DNA of 64,000 nucleotides from an uncultured Candidatus Saccharibacteria bacterium (GTDB lineage Bacteria > Patescibacteriota > Minisyncoccia > Phycocordibacterales > UBA12088): contig CAZLUD010000002.1 in assembly GCA_964562615.1 (NCBI GenBank), positions 17,907 through 81,906 on the forward strand. The letters are read 5' to 3'. The translations under genes and the position numbers were made by a program. Shown in pieces: positions 8,664 to 15,946 of the stretch. The notes under the pieces are model-generated. The model ran no database searches, was not told the DNA's origin, and was given only the letters and a program-made list of their open reading frames with translations. Position 1 is the stretch's first letter, and the number at the start of each line of letters is the position of its first letter.

Positions 8664-8921
8664 ATGAGCGACACAAGAGTCGTGGTTCAAAAAATTCTTG
8701 AAGATGTACAAAGGATAAGGAGAGAAAAAGTACCACACAAAACCTTGCCCAAAATAAGTTCAGGTATGAGAGTGAAAATTCAAATTGGGCATAGCAGTTT
8801 CATCGGAACTGCTGTAGCGGATAGCTATAGGGGATTTGTCTCTGTCAATTATATTGGTCCAGATGGATCGGAAGAAACTAGATCAATTAGTTTGCGATTG
8901 GCAACCCGCATACAAGAATAG
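8664..8921 (+). CDS. Hypothetical small protein
   Basis: GGAGG RBS 6 nt upstream of ATG 8664. No recognisable domain. It lies between murF and the tRNA. Confidence 0.35.
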   Translation: MSDTRVVVQKILEDVQRIRREKVPHKTLPKISSGMRVKIQIGHSSFIGTAVADSYRGFVSVNYIGPDGSEETRSISLRLATRIQE

Positions 8922-8948
8922 ATATCAAGTAATCAAAAGGTGGGTAAT

Positions 8949-8980
8949 GAAGGGGTCAATTCGTTGACCCCTTCATTTAT
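8949..8980 (+). terminator. Rho-independent terminator
   Basis: GAAGGGGTCAA-TTCG-TTGACCCCTTC hairpin followed by ATTTATT. Confidence 0.7.
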
Positions 8981-9008
8981 TGCATTTAAGGCCATTTTCC
9001 TCCATAAT
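8980..9008 (+). promoter_or_regulatory. Sigma70-like promoter for the tRNA
   Basis: TTGCAT -35, 17-nt spacer, CATAAT -10. The tRNA 5' end lies about 11 nt downstream. Confidence 0.6.
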
Positions 9009-9019
9009 CGTAACTACTT

Positions 9020-9091
9020 GGCCCTATCGTCTAACGGTTAGGACGGAGCCTTCTCAAGGCTTAAATCGGGGTTCGATTCCCCGTAGGGTCA
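9020..9091 (+). tRNA. tRNA-Glu (anticodon CUC), no encoded CCA
   Basis: Manual cloverleaf: acceptor GGCCCTA/TAGGGTC, D-arm GTCT/GGAC, anticodon stem GAGCC/GGCTT with loop TTCTCAA, T-arm CGGGG-TTCGATT-CCCCG. Confidence 0.8.
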
Positions 9092-9093
9092 CA

Positions 9094-9225
9094 AATCGGC
9101 CGACCGAATACGCGAATGCGTTTCGGTCGTTGCCGTTTGTAGGCACTACGGGGAATCGAACGACGGAGGCGGTATACAAGAACCGAAGCGAAGCGTAGGT
9201 TGCTTGTCGCCGAGTCGCGACCAGC
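9094..9225. repeat. 132-bp direct repeat unit A (copy 1). It contains a hairpin and an inverted 16-nt tRNA T-arm fragment
   Basis: Identical to 14325-14456. It contains ctacggggaatcgaac, the reverse complement of the tRNA T-arm. Confidence 0.9.
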
Positions 9226-9294
9226 GTGCTTAGCCAGAATGGCTTAGCAAAAGCGGGTCGATTCCCCGTAGGGTCACAAATCGAGACGAAGTCT

Positions 9295-9539
9295 CGTTTT
9301 GTGATGAAATACTAGCCTTTGCTCGAACCCATTTCGAGAAAAGACCATAACTACAACGCGTCGAGCGCGTGGTGGCTTTGTACTTCTGCGTACGCATTGG
9401 GGTGTGGCGCGCCTCGCCACTCGCTAATCGCTCGCCCCCAACCAATGAAATATCCTTACTTTTTGATTTTTCGGTGGAGGGGTCTGGGGAGGAGCCGACA
9501 AAAAATTGAAAGGATATTTCTTTGGTTTGGGGTCGCCGC
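9295..9539. repeat. Left arm (about 245 bp) of the terminal inverted repeat flanking the island cargo
   Basis: It is the reverse complement of 14082-14326. The outer tip cgttttgtga approximates the reverse complement of the core. Confidence 0.9.
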
Positions 9540-9574
9540 CATGAGTCTAGAAATAAGATTTTGTCCACGATCAA

Positions 9575-9598
9575 ACTATTATACTTTAATATAATAGT
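9575..9598 (+). promoter_or_regulatory. C-box-like palindromic operator upstream of the controller gene
   Basis: Perfect 9-bp inverted repeat ACTATTATA-n6-TATAATAGT, ending in AGTC like C.PvuII-type C-boxes. Tandem TATAAT boxes lie at 9603 and 9621. Confidence 0.55.
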
Positions 9599-9633
9599 CG
9601 TGTATAATGTAAGAGTTGGGTATAATTGTGGAG

Positions 9634-9837
9634 ATGAATGATTCCGCAAAGCTCGGCATGAATTTGAAAAAAATTCGCGAAGCGAAAAATATGTCTCAAG
9701 GTGACGTTATGCGCGTTATGGGTTGCAGTCGTAGTTATGTTAGCAACATCGAAAATGGAAAGACAAACCCCACCCTTGAGACAATTTCAAAACTAGCGAA
9801 GGTACTCGATGTAAGCACCATTGAGCTATTAAAATAG
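9634..9837 (+). CDS. XRE-family HTH regulator, candidate restriction-modification controller (C protein), probably leaderless
   Basis: HTH motif MSQGDVMRVMGCSRSYVSNIENGK. The ATG lies about 8 nt after the TATAAT at 9621-9626. The track used a TTG at 9616. Confidence 0.7.
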   Translation: MNDSAKLGMNLKKIREAKNMSQGDVMRVMGCSRSYVSNIENGKTNPTLETISKLAKVLDVSTIELLK

Positions 9838-9841
9838 AATT

Positions 9842-10798
9842 ATGACTACGCAACAAACAATCGCAAAACTCGCATATGAGTTAAAAATCAATAAAATCTA
9901 CGCGCGTCATGTTTTTCATAATGCAGACAAAACGAGATTATTTGAAGATGCGGCTCGAATTGTTAATGAGAAGCCAAAACCTTTCGTGAAATGGGTTGGA
10001 GGAAAAAGACAGTTGCTCCGCCAATTTCGTGATATGGGGTTATATCCACCTGATGATTTTGATCCTGTTACCAATACATACTTTGAGCCGTTTGTTGGCG
10101 GTGGAGCTGTCTTTTTCGATCTTCTGCCTCAGAAAGCAGAACTTTCTGATCTCAATACAGAACTTGTGACAACATACAACGTCATTAAAAATGACGTTGA
10201 TGCACTAATTAATTCACTCAAAAAACACAAGTACGAAAAAGAGTACTATCTAGAATTGCGTGCAAAAGATCCCAAAGAACTATCAGATATAAATGTTGCT
10301 TCTCGGTTCATTTTTCTTAATCGCACTTGCTTCAATGGCATGTATAGGGTCAATAGCAAAGGTGAATTCAATGTTCCGTTTGGGAAATATACAAACCCTA
10401 TAATTTGTGACGGAGATAATTTGTTTAAAGTATCGAAATCACTAAAAAAAGTAACTATCAAAAATCAAGACTATAAAAAAGTTTTGGATAAAGCAAAAAA
10501 AGGAGATTTTGTATATTTCGATCCACCTTATTATCCAGTAAGTAAAACTGCTTCCTTCACTTCATATACAGCAGATGCTTTTTTAGAAAAAGAACAGACA
10601 GAGTTGAGAGATACATTCGTAGAATTACATAAACGTGGTTGTTTTGTCATGCTTTCTAACTCCGATACTTCAGTTATCAACGAACTATACTCGAATATTA
10701 AGGATATCAAAGTATCAAAAGTTGCTGCAAGCCGTGCCATAAACTCAAATGCTTCAAAGCGAGGAAAGATAAGTGAAGTTTTAGTAACTAACTATTAA
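9842..10798 (+). CDS. Dam-family (D12 class, alpha) N6-adenine DNA methyltransferase with a 55-aa N-terminal extension
   Basis: Motifs KWVGGKRQLL, FEPFVGGGAVFF (motif I) and FDPPY (motif IV). Confidence 0.85.
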   Translation: MTTQQTIAKLAYELKINKIYARHVFHNADKTRLFEDAARIVNEKPKPFVKWVGGKRQLLRQFRDMGLYPPDDFDPVTNTYFEPFVGGGAVFFDLLPQKAELSDLNTELVTTYNVIKNDVDALINSLKKHKYEKEYYLELRAKDPKELSDINVASRFIFLNRTCFNGMYRVNSKGEFNVPFGKYTNPIICDGDNLFKVSKSLKKVTIKNQDYKKVLDKAKKGDFVYFDPPYYPVSKTASFTSYTADAFLEKEQTELRDTFVELHKRGCFVMLSNSDTSVINELYSNIKDIKVSKVAASRAINSNASKRGKISEVLVTNY

Positions 10799-10801
10799 AT
10801 T

Positions 10802-11329
10802 ATGATTAAGGGTGGCGTTGGAGGAGGAAATACAAAAACAGGATTACACTTTGAAGGTCGAATTAATATTGTCGATCTACTAAATAGCCAGCCTGGCTAC
10901 AAAGTGACGAAAGATGTTGTCTACTTTGAGGGTTCAGAAGTCGCAATCTGCCTTGCAAAACATAAATTGTATAAATGGCTTGAAACTCAAAACATAGACT
11001 ACAAAAAGTACATATCAAAAAAGTTGCTACCCGATGAGGCGTTGTATGTAATTGTAGACAACACTTTGTATGTCATTGAAATGAAGTTTCAGGAGACTCC
11101 TGGGTCAGTTGATGAAAAATTACAAACGTGTGATTTTAAGCGTAAGCAATACTCAAAATTGATGGCTCCACTAAACATTGAAGTTGAGTACATGTATGTA
11201 CTAAGTGAGTGGTTTCGTAAAGATGAATACAAAGACGTACTTGACTATATTATTTCAGTTGGATGTCAGTACTATTTTGAATATATACCATTACAGAAAC
11301 TCGGCTTACCTGTACCGAAAATACAATAA
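10802..11329 (+). CDS. Small PD-(D/E)xK nuclease, candidate type II restriction endonuclease
   Basis: 175 aa with LLPDE...VDNTLYVIEMK, giving PD-x14-ExK. It sits between two MTase genes. Confidence 0.5.
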   Translation: MIKGGVGGGNTKTGLHFEGRINIVDLLNSQPGYKVTKDVVYFEGSEVAICLAKHKLYKWLETQNIDYKKYISKKLLPDEALYVIVDNTLYVIEMKFQETPGSVDEKLQTCDFKRKQYSKLMAPLNIEVEYMYVLSEWFRKDEYKDVLDYIISVGCQYYFEYIPLQKLGLPVPKIQ

Positions 11330-11335
11330 TTATTC

Positions 11336-12088
11336 ATGGCTAAGGAAATGAAACTACACCCTGAAGAATTCGACCTTGAATGCACAACGGTGTGGGCATT
11401 TCCACGGCGTGGTAACTGGGCAACCCACAAATCAGACTGGCGTGGTAACTGGGCACCAGAAGTCGCCCGCAATCTAATCCTTCGATACTCTAACGAGGGT
11501 GACATTCTGCTAGATCCAATGATTGGCGGCGGTACTACTGCGATTGAAGCAAAGATACTCAATAGAAATATCATATGTTCAGACGTAAATGATATTGCAC
11601 TAGAACGAACAATGGAAAGTCTAAAATTTCCAGTTGAAAACAAATCGTGGCAAAAGATTGTTAAGAGGGATGCACGTGACCTCAGCAAGGCTGAAAATGA
11701 AAGTATTGATTTTATTCTCACTCACCCACCGTATGCTGATATTATCAAATATAGTGAGGGAGAAATTGATGAAGATCTTTCAAATATCCACGCGATAGAC
11801 GAGTTTGCGGACGAAATGGAAAAAGTCGCTAGTGAATTGTATAGAGTCCTTAAGCCTGGTAAATTTTGCGCAATTTTGATCGGTGATACTCGACGTCAAA
11901 AAATGTATCAACCTCTCGCATATCGAGTTATGGATCGCTTTTTGAATGTAGGTTTCGATCTCAAAGAAGACATCATAAAAAGACAATACAACTGTAAGGC
12001 AACGGGTTTTTGGGTAAATAAATCAAAAGAAAATAATTTCTTACTAATAATGCACGAACATTTGTTTGTATTTCAAAAAGCAAATTAA
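11336..12088 (+). CDS. Amino (N6A/N4C) DNA methyltransferase with motif order X-I then IV
   Basis: TVWAFPRRGNWATH...GDILLDPMIGGGTTAIEA (motif X/I) followed by ILTHPPYADI (motif IV). Confidence 0.75.
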   Translation: MAKEMKLHPEEFDLECTTVWAFPRRGNWATHKSDWRGNWAPEVARNLILRYSNEGDILLDPMIGGGTTAIEAKILNRNIICSDVNDIALERTMESLKFPVENKSWQKIVKRDARDLSKAENESIDFILTHPPYADIIKYSEGEIDEDLSNIHAIDEFADEMEKVASELYRVLKPGKFCAILIGDTRRQKMYQPLAYRVMDRFLNVGFDLKEDIIKRQYNCKATGFWVNKSKENNFLLIMHEHLFVFQKAN

Positions 12089-13874
12089 CGATATGTCTTA
12101 CAAAATTTTAAAAATTTCCATAAACAACTATCGGTCTATCAAAAGAATCACATTGACCACACCCGAATTCGGAAATCCTACAATTATATGTGGCGCAAAC
12201 AACGTAGGAAAAACAAATTTTTTACGAGCAATAGATTTATTTTTTAATGAAGTAAATTTCAAAGCATCAAACGACATTCCCTATGAAATAGTCGAAGCAA
12301 CGCGAGGAGCTGGCTATAAGACCACCATAAGTATTGATTTCATCGATACTGCTACAAAGGAAAAGGTTGTTATAAAGAAAGTATTCCGAGAACAATCTGG
12401 GGAAAATGTAGTTGAGAGAACTGGATATAAAAAGCCGTATCGAAGTAACCGTAATAATATTTATGATACTGAGATTAGAAAATTTCTTGATAATTTCCGT
12501 TTTCTTTTCGTCGAAGCTAGTAATGTAGACATCCCTGCACTTGTTGCACAAATCACAAAAAATAATGTACTTTCTGGACTCGACAAATTACGCAAGAAAC
12601 AAACTAAACCGTTGGATATTTTGAAAAAATTTATTTCGGAATCCGAAAAATCACTACAAAATATCGAGACGAATATCACAAAAAATTTTCAAGACTTTGC
12701 ACATGGGATTGGCACTTACACTGAAGGCTTAGATGCAAAAGACTGGCAGATTAAATTCATTTTTCCTGAGTATGAATTCTTAAGAGAAGCTGTTGGTAAT
12801 ATGGTTAACTTAGTGATGCAGGACAGCAACCAAAAAGAGCTCGAAGCTAAAGGTAGTGGTATTCAAAGAATACTCTTACTCTCTCTAATAAAGTATATCT
12901 CTGAGAACACAAAGAAAACTGTAATTTGGGGTATTGATGAACCAGAGGCTTTTCTTCAGCCAGGACTTCAGAAAAAAGTTTTTGCCATAATAAAGGAGAT
13001 GTCACGAAACCTTGAGATATTCATAACGACACACTCACATCACTTTGTGGATATTGGGTACCTAGAGCCAGTGCATCTATTTAATGCTAAATATACTCAA
13101 CAAGCATACTCAAGAAAGAAGAACAAAGAATATCTGAAGATAAGCACTGAAGTAGATAAGGTTACAGGATACAACAAGGTACAAAAAATAAGAGAACATC
13201 TCGGAGTAGCAACAAACGACAGTTGGGAGATTCTGCCCTACAACTTAATTGTTGAAGGCAACGAGGACAAATTATATTTGCTTAAGCTTTTAGAAATTAA
13301 CGGACTCGATCAGCCGAAAATACTTACAGCTGACGGAGCGGATAAAGTTCCCGGATATCTAGTCTTTGTTAATATGTTTTGCCAAGAACAAAAAATAAAA
13401 CCGAAAATACGAACAATATTAGATCATGACGCAAAAGGAAAACAGGTCTCAAGCAGCCTTAAATCAAAGAACTATTCATTTGATCATAAGTTAGAATTTA
13501 TTGAAAGATTCGATGGTAAAAGTAACGCAACTTGGGAATATGACGTTGAAGATTTAATTTATCCTGAAATATTAATTAAATCCGTTAATAAAATACTACA
13601 AAAAAGAAATTATTCGATACTAAAAGTAAAAGAGACCGTCACAAAGAAGAATCAGCCGAGTTATCAGAAAGATTCAATTCTTTCATTCATTACAGCGCAG
13701 GTTAAAGAAGTTAACCAGGATAAAGAAGAGCTTGACTTTGAAAGTCCGTCACTCAAAATATTTCTTTGTACAACCACCTGTTCTCTACTTTCACAGACTA
13801 AGGACATAGCTAACTTGAACAAAAAATATCCTGAAATCCTGAAATATTTAAAACAGATATCTGTAGAATTTTGA
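12066..13874 (+). CDS. OLD-family ATP-dependent nuclease (ABC ATPase fused to TOPRIM); alternative start at 12093
   Basis: Walker A ICGANNVGKTN, signature GSGIQR, Walker B IDEPEAFL, H-loop TTHSHH. The C-terminal TOPRIM is LIVEGNEDK...ADGADK. Confidence 0.8.
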   Translation: MYFKKQINDMSYKILKISINNYRSIKRITLTTPEFGNPTIICGANNVGKTNFLRAIDLFFNEVNFKASNDIPYEIVEATRGAGYKTTISIDFIDTATKEKVVIKKVFREQSGENVVERTGYKKPYRSNRNNIYDTEIRKFLDNFRFLFVEASNVDIPALVAQITKNNVLSGLDKLRKKQTKPLDILKKFISESEKSLQNIETNITKNFQDFAHGIGTYTEGLDAKDWQIKFIFPEYEFLREAVGNMVNLVMQDSNQKELEAKGSGIQRILLLSLIKYISENTKKTVIWGIDEPEAFLQPGLQKKVFAIIKEMSRNLEIFITTHSHHFVDIGYLEPVHLFNAKYTQQAYSRKKNKEYLKISTEVDKVTGYNKVQKIREHLGVATNDSWEILPYNLIVEGNEDKLYLLKLLEINGLDQPKILTADGADKVPGYLVFVNMFCQEQKIKPKIRTILDHDAKGKQVSSSLKSKNYSFDHKLEFIERFDGKSNATWEYDVEDLIYPEILIKSVNKILQKRNYSILKVKETVTKKNQPSYQKDSILSFITAQVKEVNQDKEELDFESPSLKIFLCTTTCSLLSQTKDIANLNKKYPEILKYLKQISVEF

Positions 13875-14081
13875 CAAGCACACACGCAGCAACACCGAGC
13901 AGGCGGCGCGAGCGAATGCGAGCGTGCCTATGCGAGGTGCTTGCGTAGTGTGAGCGGACGCTAGCTTTACCACGCGCGCTGTATACGGGAAGCGCGCCTC
14001 GCTCGACGCGAGGACGGAAAAAAGCGTAGTGGTAGGCTCTCAAGTAGATGGAGACTATAATGGAGCTTTTTGGAGGACGAA

Positions 14082-14326
14082 GCGGCGACCCCAAACCAAA
14101 GAAATATCCTTTCAATTTTTTGTCGGCTCCTCCCCAGACCCCTCCACCGAAAAATCAAAAAGTAAGGATATTTCATTGGTTGGGGGCGAGCGATTAGCGA
14201 GTGGCGAGGCGCGCCACACCCCAATGCGTACGCAGAAGTACAAAGCCACCACGCGCTCGACGCGTTGTAGTTATGGTCTTTTCTCGAAATGGGTTCGAGC
14301 AAAGGCTAGTATTTCATCACAAATCG
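14082..14326. repeat. Right arm (about 245 bp) of the terminal inverted repeat
   Basis: It is the reverse complement of 9295-9539. It ends in the TCACAAATCG core, which abuts repeat unit A. Confidence 0.9.
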
Positions 14327-14456
14327 GCCGACCGAATACGCGAATGCGTTTCGGTCGTTGCCGTTTGTAGGCACTACGGGGAATCGAACGACGGAGGCGG
14401 TATACAAGAACCGAAGCGAAGCGTAGGTTGCTTGTCGCCGAGTCGCGACCTAATTT
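14325..14456. repeat. 132-bp direct repeat unit A (copy 2)
   Basis: Identical to 9094-9225. It is followed by a 52-bp insertion flanked by GCGACC, then the shared 58-bp segment. Confidence 0.9.
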
Positions 14457-14563
14457 TTACGACCAAAGGGAGATAAAAATGGAAGTACTCTTTGTGGTGC
14501 GACCAGCGTGCTTAGCCAGAATGGCTTAGCAAAAGCGGGTCGATTCCCCGTAGGGTCACACGA

Positions 14564-14598
14564 AATCCTGGTACTAATTTTTTATTAGTACCAGGATT
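14564..14598. repeat. Perfect 15-bp palindrome with a T5 loop at the island/chromosome junction
   Basis: aatcctggtactaat-ttttt-attagtaccaggatt, immediately after the last tRNA 3' copy. Confidence 0.8.
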
Positions 14599-14691
14599 GC
14601 GCTTGTGATGCCTGGGAGGCAGAATCGAAAGCCGCAGCAAAGCGAGGCAGGGCAGGAGCCACTTAGGTTTCTGGGAGATATTGCTATTTAT

Positions 14692-14844
14692 CTATTTGAG
14701 TGGATTTTCACCGCGGATTACACGAATAAGTACTACAATAATAGCAATAACTAATAACACGTGAACGAATCCACCAACGGTATATGAGGTAACCATACCA
14801 AGAAGCCAAAGCACAACAAGAACAGCGGCGATAGTAGTAAGCAT
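14692..14844 (-). CDS. Small membrane protein, lmo0937-like family (50 aa). Absent from the ORF track because it is under 60 aa
   Basis: MLTTIAAVLVVLWLLGMVTSYTVGGFVHVLLVIAIIVVLIRVIRGENPLK matches the conserved LWLLG...GGxxHxLLVIAxIVxLIR pattern. Confidence 0.55.
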   Translation of the reverse strand: MLTTIAAVLVVLWLLGMVTSYTVGGFVHVLLVIAIIVVLIRVIRGENPLK

Positions 14845-15070
14845 AGGAGTGAGTTTTAAAAAGAATCAAATAATATTCGACTCATCGCTCACTGTGAGGC
14901 GATATAGTTATATTGTCTCACCTCACACAAAGAGCACAAGGGTGTGTCATAAGAACTCTCTGAGAACTACTAATCATCAATTTTAGAAATAAGAGCCGTG
15001 ATTTCTTTCAAGCAGACAATAAATCACAACTAATGCCACAATAACCACGTTAATTTGTGGTGATATACTC

Positions 15071-15946
15071 ATGCATATGCCTAGAAAAATGCTGAGGAGT
15101 ATGGTGAAAAAGAAGGGGGTGAAAAGAGAAATGGCAAAGGCAGATGTAAAGGATGGCGTAAAGGTGAGTGGGAATGTGGATGTGGTAAGAAAAAAGAAGG
15201 GAGCATTTATGAATGAGAAAACGGGGAAGGTGTCAATCACTGAAGCGTTTGGTGGGTCACTTGCAGCATTGCTAGCGGATAAAATAGTGGCGGTGTATCC
15301 AGAATTTCAAAAAAAGAAATTTTGTGCACAGGTGGTAAAGGAGGTGGTGGGGAAGTCATATACCGAGCGGGTGGGTATCATTGCTGATGCACTCCATACA
15401 CACCTCCCTGAAGCATACCCAGATGCCCTCGGTATCTTGATGCAGATACTTGGACCAGAAAATAAAGAAGAGACCGGCATGTTTACCCACTATTATTGGC
15501 TTATGCCCGTGGGTAAATTTGTAGAGAAGTACGGGATAGACAATTTCTCTTTGTCTATAAAAGCAATAGAAGAGATAACAAAAAGAAATACTGGCGAGTA
15601 TGCCATTCGACCGTTTGCAAGAACGTACCCTGCAAAAACACTTGCCGTGTGTACGCGGTGGGCAAAGAGCAACAACTTTCACTTGCGCCGCCTTGCGTCA
15701 GAAGGGCTTCGCCCAAAGTTGCCATGGGCAACAAAACTTGAGGTGTGGAATGATGCCCCGGCGCCGGCTATGGCGATTCTTGATCTTTTGAAAGAGGATG
15801 AGGTGCGCTTTGTGAAAAAGTCGGTTGCCAATCATTTGCGCGATTGGATAAAGGTACATCCACAAGAAGCAAAAAAGATTATTGCTAGATGGTCTGTATC
15901 AAAGAATCCCGATACTATATGGATACTAAAGCATGCGCAGCGATAA
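15071..15946 (+). CDS. DNA alkylation repair protein (AlkD-like HEAT repeat); possible start at 15208
   Basis: RRLASEGLRPKLPWA motif and HEAT-like repeats. Confidence 0.7.
   Translation: MHMPRKMLRSMVKKKGVKREMAKADVKDGVKVSGNVDVVRKKKGAFMNEKTGKVSITEAFGGSLAALLADKIVAVYPEFQKKKFCAQVVKEVVGKSYTERVGIIADALHTHLPEAYPDALGILMQILGPENKEETGMFTHYYWLMPVGKFVEKYGIDNFSLSIKAIEEITKRNTGEYAIRPFARTYPAKTLAVCTRWAKSNNFHLRRLASEGLRPKLPWATKLEVWNDAPAPAMAILDLLKEDEVRFVKKSVANHLRDWIKVHPQEAKKIIARWSVSKNPDTIWILKHAQR

Follow-up and report, generated by a model that had tools for sequence, protein, structure and literature searches.

A restriction-modification island at a tRNA-Glu gene of a Patescibacteria genome, bounded by inverted copies of what appears to be a serine recombinase gene end

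The tRNA-Glu locus and its repeats

In a 64-kb stretch of a Patescibacteria genome of the Paceibacteria type (contig CAZLUD010000002.1; the whole stretch is hereafter called the window), a tRNA-Glu gene is followed by a 5-kb island of restriction-modification (RM) and other putative defense genes that is enclosed by long inverted repeats (IRs) (Table 1). Both tips of these repeats encode a C-terminal stretch of a large serine recombinase (LSR), ..CDEILAFARTHFEKRP*, with 22 residues in the left repeat (IR-L) and 17 in the right (IR-R). We consider it very probable that the island belongs to a large family of LSR islands in Patescibacteria and that it has lost its recombinase gene by deletion. 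The cargo has a GC content of 36% compared to 44-45% in the flanks, which supports its being a horizontally acquired unit, in line with a first-pass annotation, made from the sequence alone, that had seen an integrative element here.

By BLAST, the IRs (9295-9539 and 14082-14326) match over 244/245 positions (99.6%). Their extent is as previously described, but they are not perfect, having one mismatch at 9297. A 10-bp core, TCACAAATCG, occurs at 9274-9283 and 14317-14326, as reported earlier, and a third time at 9089-9098 within the tRNA end (0.17 copies expected; three or more in 0/100 shuffles). The tRNA-Glu 3' end (TCGATTCCCCGTAGGGTCACA), which comprises the last ~24 nt of the gene, recurs at 9255-9278 and 14537-14560. 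Thus, the claim of three tRNA-end copies stands, with the correction that the third lies ~9 nt away from the position at which it had been placed (14528-14550), while two reverse-complement copies, at 9132-9161 and 14360-14389, had been missed. The core had also been interpreted as a flanking duplication of 10 bp. The direct repeat is in fact ~190 nt long and consists of two parts (9089-9222 = 14317-14450, 134/134; 9217-9278 = 14499-14560, 62/62), with 54 extra nt in the right copy that are bounded by the 6-nt repeat GCGACC, and the core is better understood as the crossover region of an attachment site inside a recombinase gene. There are three tRNA-end copies because a ~190-nt module, made up of a trailer segment (X, or X' in the right copy) and a closing tRNA-end copy (t'), is present twice.

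These repeats are also found in independent reads. Logan unitigs (SRR12762285/87), obtained by exact look-ups of the flanking and cargo proteins, end exactly at each repeat boundary with k-1 (30-nt) overlaps, and hence the repeats are no artifact of the window assembly, although the unitigs carry no information on orientation or on an empty site. One unitig (L002) begins at t' and continues into the native downstream flank on the 14561-14601 side. Another, which contains MurF (L001), stops at window position 9067, which lies within the tRNA, 5-6 nt short of the start of the repeated tRNA end. This stop is not predicted by a simple repeat break at k = 31 and may reflect a population variant or low coverage.

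Table 1. Features of the island and its borders, in window coordinates
Feature	Position	Strand	Evidence and remarks
tRNA-Glu(CTC)	9020-9092	+	ARAGORN; Rfam 61.5 bits; B half of the putative attachment site at its 3' end
Core copy 1 (TCACAAATCG)	9089-9098	+	Junction of tRNA and trailer-module copy 1
Trailer module copy 1 (X + t')	9093-9278	+	Without the 54 nt of copy 2; hairpin 9099-9131; reverse-complement tRNA end 9132-9161; body with two hairpins; t' 9255-9278
31-bp palindrome TCACAAATCGAGAC-GAA-GTCTCGTTTTGTGA	9274-9304	.	attL-like junction (core copy 2, 9274-9283) and putative scar
Recombinase-gene 3'-end remnant RDEVSFCDEILAFARTHFEKRP*	9282-9350	+	Overlaps IR-L; tblastn E = 8e-7; six-frame motif scan
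IR-L	9295-9539	+	Putative recombinase 3' end and conserved downstream non-coding region D; D has a 30-bp-stem hairpin (9435-9532) and the palindrome TGCGTACGCA
XRE-type helix-turn-helix protein, 73 aa	9616-9837	+	Pfam HTH_3 2.6e-19; PADLOC control protein
Dam-like (D12 class) N6-adenine DNA methyltransferase	9842-10798	+	Pfam 2.8e-61; PADLOC MTase_II 2.8e-99; 86-87% aa identity to L127, L160
175-aa open reading frame, putative restriction endonuclease	10802-11329	+	Pfam PDDEXK_11 E = 0.0013, below cut-off; no PADLOC match
N6/N4 DNA methyltransferase	11336-12088	+	Pfam N6_N4_Mtase 1.2e-25; PADLOC 5.3e-89; 93% aa identity to L127, L144, L160
602-aa AAA_15/AAA_21 ATPase, OLD/GajA/AriA type	12066-13874	+	Pfam; PADLOC AriA 3.8e-27, Old 7.2e-23, GajA 1e-20; candidate defense gene
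Region E, GC-rich, conserved, non-coding	13875-14081	.	Adjoins IR-R only; presumed continuation of the recombinase's original downstream region
IR-R	14082-14326	-	Inverted D copy and putative recombinase 3' end ICDEILAFARTHFEKRP* (minus strand, ~14271-14324)
IR-R tip	14317-14326		Core copy 3 and attR-like junction
Trailer module copy 2 (X' + t')	14327-14560	+	Reverse-complement tRNA end 14360-14389; 54 extra nt ~14451-14504; t' 14537-14560; B' side of the putative attachment site
Terminator-like hairpin after the last t'	14561-14601	.	Native downstream flank, shared with DUF5670 gene 14692-14844 (-)

A recombinase gene end in the inverted repeats

To place the remnants in context, we compare the window with relatives carrying the recombinase in full (L-numbered stretches, all metagenome assemblies). 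In L119, a 521-aa open reading frame (ORF) with the Pfam domains Resolvase, Recombinase, and Zn_ribbon_recom runs into the IR. With this LSR as the tblastn query, a match is obtained at window positions 9243-9344 (E = 8e-7), and the 22-residue remnant in IR-L is identical to the C-terminus of another full-length LSR, P0002. Judging from these matches, the IR tips are the 3' end of an LSR gene together with its downstream region, and the earlier description of a transposon-like, non-autonomous element with terminal IRs is revised on this basis. Full-length homologs lie beside IR units in L127, L132, L134, L151, L091, L108, L143, L161, L165, L166, and L084, and more than 5,900 homologs are retrieved at E <= 1e-20, with the source names among the matches listed being mostly 'recombinase family protein' of Patescibacteria/Paceibacteria. 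As the window holds only the two C-terminal remnants and no full gene by motif scan, it represents a derivative of an LSR element rather than a complete member.

Two classes of C-terminus are observed among these recombinases. The native class ends in ..EVSFCD|EILAFARTHF.. (pattern ..FCD|EIL.FART.F..), whereas the tRNA-fused class ends in ..EVSFCD|PTGNRTP.., where PTGNRTP is encoded by the reverse complement of the tRNA T-arm. The two classes part exactly after ..FCD, and in integrated copies, the LSR ORF joins the antisense tRNA at the Cys-Asp codons, with TGTGA being the complement of the TCACA core. Because the tails diverge at this point, we place the attachment site of the element (attP) inside the recombinase ORF, with crossover at the Cys-Asp codons. 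Most of the best 120 LSR homologs (P0001-P0120) cover 97% of the query and are ~525 aa long, while a minority cover 99-100% and are ~521 aa long. In the 12 sequences that we read, the ~525-aa form has the tRNA-fused tail and the ~521-aa form the native one. The prevalence of the ~525-aa form among these best homologs suggests that public protein sets mostly hold integrated, tail-swapped LSRs; native-tail (unsplit) genes are common in the database as well. More distant homologs are also found beside tRNA-Glu (L008, L026, L044, and L055), with sub-families at Leu, Ser, Val, and Ala tRNAs.

These observations can be combined into a model of integration. In the intact elements (L168, L151, and L127), the LSR gene closes with two segments, T1 (..EVSFCD) and T2 (EILAFARTHFEKRP*), behind which lie ~190 nt of conserved non-coding sequence, D. 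We take attP to be centered on the T1/T2 boundary, with TTTCA-TCACAAA(T)-NGARAC on the tRNA strand, and thus to lie within the ORF. Integration would join attP to the tRNA-Glu 3' end and its trailer (..GGG-TCACAAA-..), placing the gene body and T1 next to the tRNA such that the ORF reads into the antisense tRNA (..FCD|PTGNRTP..), and moving T2 and D to the far end of the element, where they would form IR-R. A second, inverted, and intact T1-T2-D copy just upstream of the recombinase gene constitutes IR-L. The outcome is a cargo bracketed by ~250-nt IRs and a recombinase gene that itself lies between two copies of its 3' end in inverted orientation. When rebuilt from L168 and L162, attP would read TTTCA-TCACAAAT-TGAAA, or in longer form ..GTATTTCA-TCACAAAT-TGAAAC.., an imperfect palindrome, with TTTCATCACAAAT as the predicted sequence type for recombinases like those of P0002 and L168. 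The rebuilt chromosomal site (attB) would be the tRNA end plus the trailer.

An intact element occupies the same locus in L168, a 714-kb scaffold with the gene order of the window (MreC-PBP2-GreA-aminoacyl-tRNA synthetase-MraZ-RsmH-FtsL-FtsI-MurF-tRNA-Glu). There, tRNA-Glu is followed by an LSR gene (525 aa) that reads toward and into the tRNA, an IR, XRE, a D12 methyltransferase, a DpnII restriction endonuclease, an N6/N4 methyltransferase, a 732-aa ORF, the second IR, and a module resembling X. Two IR pairs, both 100% identical, are present: one of 131 nt, formed by the recombinase 3' end (T1) and an inverted copy upstream of the gene, and one of 254 nt (T2 and D) around the cargo. The attL junction reads ..CCCGTGAGG-TCACAAATTGAAACTTCC.., the internal intact copy ..GGAAGTTTCAATTTGTGA|TGAAATACTAGCC.., and the attR junction ..GGCTAGTATTTCA-TCACAAA-AGCCCGCC... 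The window matches L168 over IR-L, XRE, and the Dam-like gene (82.7% over 9285-10794), the second methyltransferase (81% over 11336-12078), and region E, IR-R, and the first 63 nt of X' (80% over 13875-14389). In L127, whose XRE, Dam-like, and N6/N4 methyltransferase proteins are 86-93% identical to those of the window, a full LSR lies beside IR-L where the window has a palindrome, and intact LSR homologs are likewise found at the equivalent position in L168, L151, and L132.

The tRNA-Glu gene is joined to a recombinase 3' end in L168, L167, L169, L151, and L065, and it is thus a target beyond the window; the site holds an intact element in L168, L151, and L065, a different insertion in L004, and the trailer module only in L011 and L020. 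The relatives do not uniformly show the same arrangement without an empty site or further copies of the repeat, which would have suggested an old, fixed rearrangement: the IR has many copies around different cargo, and the tRNA site is variously occupied. Site-specific integration at the tRNA-Glu 3' end, proposed from the start, is upheld by the core TCACAAA(TCG) at both junctions of the window: the putative hybrid attL and attR junctions share TCACAAATCG at 9274 and 14317, in addition to the copy at 9089 in the tRNA.

The IR is not restricted to RM islands. The 21-mer of its hairpin loop matches 83 metagenomic stretches, and in ~20 of these loci, two inverted units of 100-416 nt bound 1.7-7 kb of variable cargo, including TdeIII, NgoPII, HpaII, AlwI, and EcoRV RM systems, HamA with a helicase, SMODS, AbiEii, HerA, an ABC/MacB transporter, LD-carboxypeptidase, and isochorismatase. 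Most of this cargo consists of defense genes (RM, Hachiman-like, CBASS-like, AbiE, and OLD/Gabija-like), and no recombinase or transposase occurs in the IR-bounded cargos scanned with Pfam. Where outer flanks are visible, the IR unit abuts either a tRNA 3' end (Glu, Leu, Ser, Ala, or Val) or a recombinase gene, and cassettes without a recombinase abut tRNAs in L162, L094, L087, and L105. The 21-mer has no match in IMG/VR, and a viral origin was rejected on that account. In L172 (1-7200), a recombinase gene sits between inverted IR units, and an outward-reading XRE gene with its own cargo follows each unit, such that two cassettes share one recombinase.

Region E is conserved in L162, L149, L144, L147, L119, and L168, and the fold of 13875-14326 has z = -4.3. 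Its conservation and its position beside IR-R only fit the proposal that IR-R is the original downstream region of the recombinase, split off by integration. It also holds TATAAT followed by GGAGG, pointing outward over IR-R. The long hairpin of the IR (9435-9532 and 14089-14186 in the window; L084 840-930; L129 470-560) has a 30-bp stem and a 38-nt loop that is C-rich, with GGCTCCTCCCCAGACCCCTCC on one strand, and the orientation of the loop relative to the flanking IR differs between a window/L162 type and an L084/L129 type.

Proposed recombinase deletion, module duplication, and competing explanations

The palindrome at the left end of the island, which the first-pass annotation had already noted, has as its arms the last 14 nt of two inverted T1 copies, fused at GAA. 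It sits where the gene lies in L168, and it is best read as a deletion scar of the recombinase gene. In L168, L151, and L127, the gene lies between two inverted T1 copies, and the deletion would have taken place between two such copies, with the internal palindrome GAGAC-NNN-GTCTC, a direct microhomology in both arms, as the likely route. The natural coding sequence of L119 holds a small palindrome of this kind, GAGAC-GAA-GTCTC. It places identical short sequences in direct orientation in both arms, and the observed scar is just what a deletion through such microhomology would produce. Symmetric scars also follow tRNA-Glu in L162 (23-nt arms) and L094 (26-nt arms), each centered on its own T1 internal palindrome, and the undeleted sequences on both sides in L151 match what such a deletion would fuse.

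The trailer module has a wider distribution of its own. A ~180-240-nt form is common in Paceibacteria, following tRNA-Glu in L011, L020, L012, L015, L050, and L062 and tRNA-Ala in L035 (1-250) and L057 (5267-5540). In order, it comprises a hairpin, the 3' end of the local tRNA in reverse complement (covarying with that tRNA), the motif GACGGAGGCGG-hairpin-GTCGCCGAGTC, another hairpin that bears CUUAG on each strand, and a direct tRNA-end copy. On the plus strand, the window module reads ..AFRSLPFVG|TTGNRTT, resembling an older, inverted, tRNA-fused recombinase tail, and on this likeness, the module is probably a fossil of earlier recombinase elements. The same 24-29-nt tRNA-end sequence stands at both of its ends, which allows tandem duplication through unequal exchange. 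The attachment site used here would then be the junction of two tandem ~190-240-nt modules, where t'|X' offers a perfect second attB, and integration at this junction would be the simplest account of the long direct repeat. Tandem duplication of the whole element followed by excision of one copy is an alternative. The first 63 nt and the 54-nt segment of copy 2 have counterparts after IR-R in L168. Because the L168 module right of attR includes this segment, we consider the right copy ancestral and the left a deletion derivative, which lost the 54 nt by microhomology deletion between the flanking GCGACC repeats. Within the segment (14451-14504), AGGGAG precedes the ATG start of a 16-codon ORF.

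An RNA role for X is possible. Rfam, searched with gathering and E-value thresholds in the window and in 8900-9650 and 13850-14700, finds only the tRNA, and ARAGORN detects neither a tmRNA nor a further tRNA behind tRNA-Glu, either in the window or in 25 relatives. The fold of 9020-9300 (z = -9.3) and the covarying reverse-complement copy had suggested a structured 3'-trailer RNA that pairs with the tRNA; we now read them as inverted copies, at the DNA level, of recombinase/tRNA junctions.

Several points weigh against our interpretation of the island as a recombinase-deleted LSR element. No full recombinase gene was found in the 64-kb window when its 69 ORFs were scanned by regular expressions for tyrosine (H.LRH) and serine (Y.R.S) motifs, which is a crude test, and the recombinase assignment therefore rests on a 22-26-codon remnant and on synteny with relatives. 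Products of excision or integration, namely an empty attB and a circle of the window element, were not observed. The X + t' copy between the tRNA and the element is absent in L168 and requires an extra duplication step that cannot be dated. The attL-side core has T at position 8, whereas IR-L has A, so that the crossover cannot be placed to the nucleotide from the window alone. Finally, all relatives are metagenome assemblies, in which cargo orientation relative to the flanks can be mis-assembled where the IRs exceed the k-mer size. Observed directly are the repeats, the coding remnants, the intact homologous element at this locus in a relative, the two recombinase C-termini, and the family of IR-bounded cargos; our statements on the precise crossover point, on how the gene was deleted, on the succession of events behind the duplicated module, on present-day mobility, and on the function of IR-L, D, and E are inferred.

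The most serious alternative concerns mobility: the cassette may still be a functional non-autonomous element that a cognate LSR encoded elsewhere in the genome, together with a directionality factor, excises as a circle and re-integrates at tRNA-Glu, which recasts for a serine recombinase the mobilization in trans suggested by the first-pass annotation. This is conceivable, as the window has both an attL-like and an attR-like junction, each containing the complete 10-bp core, and the P' arm left after the deletion departs from its natural form at the 3-nt center of the internal palindrome alone (GAA for TTC; window versus L119 and L168). The recombinase family is, moreover, very abundant in the phylum, and the recombinase-less cassettes listed above abut tRNAs in several genomes. 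The scars, however, differ from one recombinase-less copy to the next, with arms of 14, 23, and 26 nt, which argues for independent decay in place rather than the spread of one deleted form. When this is considered along with the negative motif scan and the lack of an empty site or circle junction (predicted as ..GTATTTCATCACAAATCGAGACGAAGTCTCG.. / ..GTATTTCATCACAAATCGAGACGAAG..) for the window element, we regard mobilization in trans as a tentative proposal.

A slightly less probable option, which is compatible with a recombinase-deleted island, is the alternative already raised in the first-pass annotation, that the cargo is an invertible segment, flipped via the 245-bp IRs by homologous or recombinase-mediated exchange; inversion would then be a feature of the family, for example by switching the 3'-end copy into which the recombinase gene reads. 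The IR pairs are 99-100% identical within most elements compared to ~74-94% between elements, and this pattern points to ongoing exchange between the two arms. Both 'recombinase into IR, then XRE' (L119 and L172) and 'recombinase into IR, then cargo tail' (L173) occur, and in L087, XRE is distal to the tRNA, opposite to the window. In a pair from two samples, L173 (1776-4018) and L174 (1782-3951), with identical recombinases and 99.8%-identical DNA, the cargo (XRE, a 209-aa ORF, and a short-chain dehydrogenase) is in opposite orientations with breakpoints inside the IR. This pair is only suggestive because L173 can be resolved by a GGG indel between its IR copies, whereas the IR copies of L174 are identical and leave its orientation unresolvable by k = 141 assembly. 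Against inversion, the same element has the same orientation in two samples (L168 and L169), XRE is tRNA-proximal in most tRNA-anchored copies, and the window itself shows no second orientation. We hold inversion of the cargo to be possible but less likely than not.

Far less plausible is a transposon-like unit whose 245-bp IRs are terminal and whose 10-bp repeat is a target duplication, mobilized in trans by a DDE transposase, or a Kobayashi-type variant thereof, in which RM genes insert with a short or long duplication. Long IRs do flank the RM unit, bracketed by a 10-bp direct repeat, and the ends read 5'-TG..CA-3'; RM units with IRs and 8-bp duplications, as well as insertions with long target duplications, have been described (Furuta et al. 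2010, PMC2853133). The 10-bp repeat, however, is part of the tRNA end and invariant across loci, as expected of a site-specific core, and the IR tips correspond to serine recombinase coding sequence. Members with visible outer flanks are not scattered but adjoin the 3' end of a tRNA or a recombinase gene, the Pfam-scanned cargos contain no transposase, and in other genomes the module that makes up the long direct repeat occurs independently of any cassette. A long target duplication without any other mobility element was set aside for related reasons: the 190-nt repeat is present, but a recombinase-based element explains the insertion and the module can be duplicated alone.

We assign the lowest probability, close to nil, to integration of folded single-stranded DNA by a host tyrosine recombinase, in the manner of CTX phage and integrating mobile elements exploiting Xer (IMEX) or of integron attC sites, with core, hairpin, and inverted core as the folded attP. 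The order of core, hairpin, reverse-complement core, cargo, and core is that expected from single-strand exchange on one hairpin arm, and the inverted cores are variably spaced, at 9, 27, and 33 nt, but the arms are more simply two inverted gene 3' ends, with the gene still between them in relatives, and a serine recombinase rather than an Xer- or IntI-type gene is consistently associated with the family. This idea, along with Tn7-like multi-site ends and a tandem-inversion duplication, was dropped once the IR tips proved to match recombinase coding sequence. An integron cassette was likewise rejected, with no IntI found and two long inverted units per cassette in place of one attC.

Relation to known systems, cargo genes, and flanking insertions

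Familiar LSR systems include the phiC31, Bxb1, A118, and TP901-1 integrases, CcrAB of SCCmec, and TndX/TnpX. Like these, the recombinase of the window family has Resolvase, Recombinase, and zinc-ribbon domains, its attP and attB share only a short core (7-10 bp) with imperfect inverted half-sites in attP, and it integrates site-specifically with its gene at one end of the element. Unlike these, the window family has attP inside the ORF, such that integration would swap the last ~14-16 codons for antisense-tRNA codons; it carries an inverted spare 3' end and downstream region, giving ~250-nt IRs around the cargo; and its target is a tRNA 3' end plus trailer, with the recombinase gene gone altogether in the window. 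The tycheposons of Hackl et al. are reportedly tRNA-targeted elements with variable cargo, in which recombinase-less remnants and partial tRNA repeats accumulate, as here; their host phylum and recombinase family differ from ours, and to our knowledge, neither an IR architecture nor attP within an ORF has been reported for them. The pdif modules of Acinetobacter plasmids also hold recombinase-less cargo between inverted sites and are presumably moved by a recombinase encoded elsewhere. In contrast to those of the window family, their sites are 28-bp XerC/D sites at which host tyrosine recombinases act, and they neither target a tRNA nor derive from coding sequence.

Parallels for single traits also come from two other sources. 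The 'suicidal' integrases of the SSV type are tyrosine recombinases and are stated to be exclusive to archaea (2021 review, PMC8371274). Like them, the window family has the attachment site in the recombinase's own gene, which is partitioned on integration, as well as a tRNA target and trapped, decayed copies ('gene capture'). It differs in that its enzyme is serine-type (Resolvase, Recombinase, Zn_ribbon_recom) and its hosts are Patescibacteria, and in that only the extreme C-terminus is swapped, leaving the ORF open (525 versus 521 aa), with a spare intact inverted 3' end. The RM units of Furuta, Abe and Kobayashi (2010) have IRs of 26-65 bp that are unique to each unit (PMC2853133). The window resembles them as a Type II RM unit without an internal mobility gene that is flanked by IRs and by short and ~190-nt direct repeats, while its ~250-nt IR is common to a whole family with unrelated cargos and derives from a recombinase gene, and its long direct repeat is a pre-existing tRNA-trailer module rather than an arbitrary target duplication.

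More speculatively, the Patescibacteria LSR islands may be a bacterial, serine-type counterpart of the 'suicidal' integrases, in which attP lies in the ORF and an identical inverted spare 3' end and untranslated region create ~250-400-nt IRs. These would make the recombinase gene and the XRE-led cassette invertible, could toggle the C-terminus between tRNA-fused and native forms as a possible directionality or rescue switch, and might make the islands the main vehicle of RM and defense genes in this reduced-genome phylum; taken as a whole, we hold this proposal to be improbable at present. The window element itself is, on our main reading, a grounded island whose recombinase gene has been lost. 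An attP within the ORF contrasts with the review that makes this feature exclusive to archaeal tyrosine integrases (PMC8371274). If confirmed, the family would provide a rule for locating defense islands and their exact borders in genomes of the candidate phyla radiation (CPR), natural LSR/attP/attB triplets with a small, conserved, tRNA-based attB of use in genome engineering, and a testable case of long IRs that stabilize, invert, or destroy an element's own recombinase. The family is widespread in Patescibacteria and apparently undescribed: literature searches on serine recombinases, inverted repeats, and tRNAs of Patescibacteria returned no description of it, which amounts to no more than an absence of evidence.

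Among the five cargo ORFs, Pfam finds no recombinase, in accordance with the first-pass annotation, which had seen no integrase, invertase, or transposase. Homologs of the window XRE adjoin one IR in ~30 loci with unrelated cargo. Since XRE stands beside the IR whatever the cargo, it is a backbone gene of the element and not merely an RM control protein, although it is possibly that as well. With respect to a DpnII-like RM system, both methyltransferases are clear, with the N6/N4 enzyme as the second methyltransferase of the cassette, and the endonuclease slot holds the 175-aa ORF with only a sub-threshold PD-(D/E)XK match. Given this weak match and its location in the slot of the L168 DpnII endonuclease, the ORF is a probable restriction endonuclease. 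The slot is mosaic, with a 286-aa DpnII-family enzyme in L168 (7470-8330) and the unrelated ORF in the window, while the methyltransferase genes around it are well conserved (~81-83% nt identity to L168; 86-93% aa identity to L127/L160). Window and L168 also differ in their final cargo gene, the OLD-like ATPase of 602 aa in the former and the 732-aa ORF in the latter.

Upstream of the tRNA, the MurF-like ligase of the window is 89% identical to that of the metagenome-assembled genome CAYPBQ01 (L004) and 40-50% identical to those of dozens of Paceibacteria. L004, the closest relative, is collinear with the window as far as the tRNA and then holds a different 3.6-kb insertion, from which we conclude that the tRNA-Glu site is an insertion hotspot. 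This insertion (11790-15389) contains a perfect 283-nt tandem direct repeat (11945-12227 / 12256-12538) and a 174-aa ORF on the minus strand (14829-15353) that, with no Pfam match, appears by eye to be the C-terminal part of another serine recombinase.

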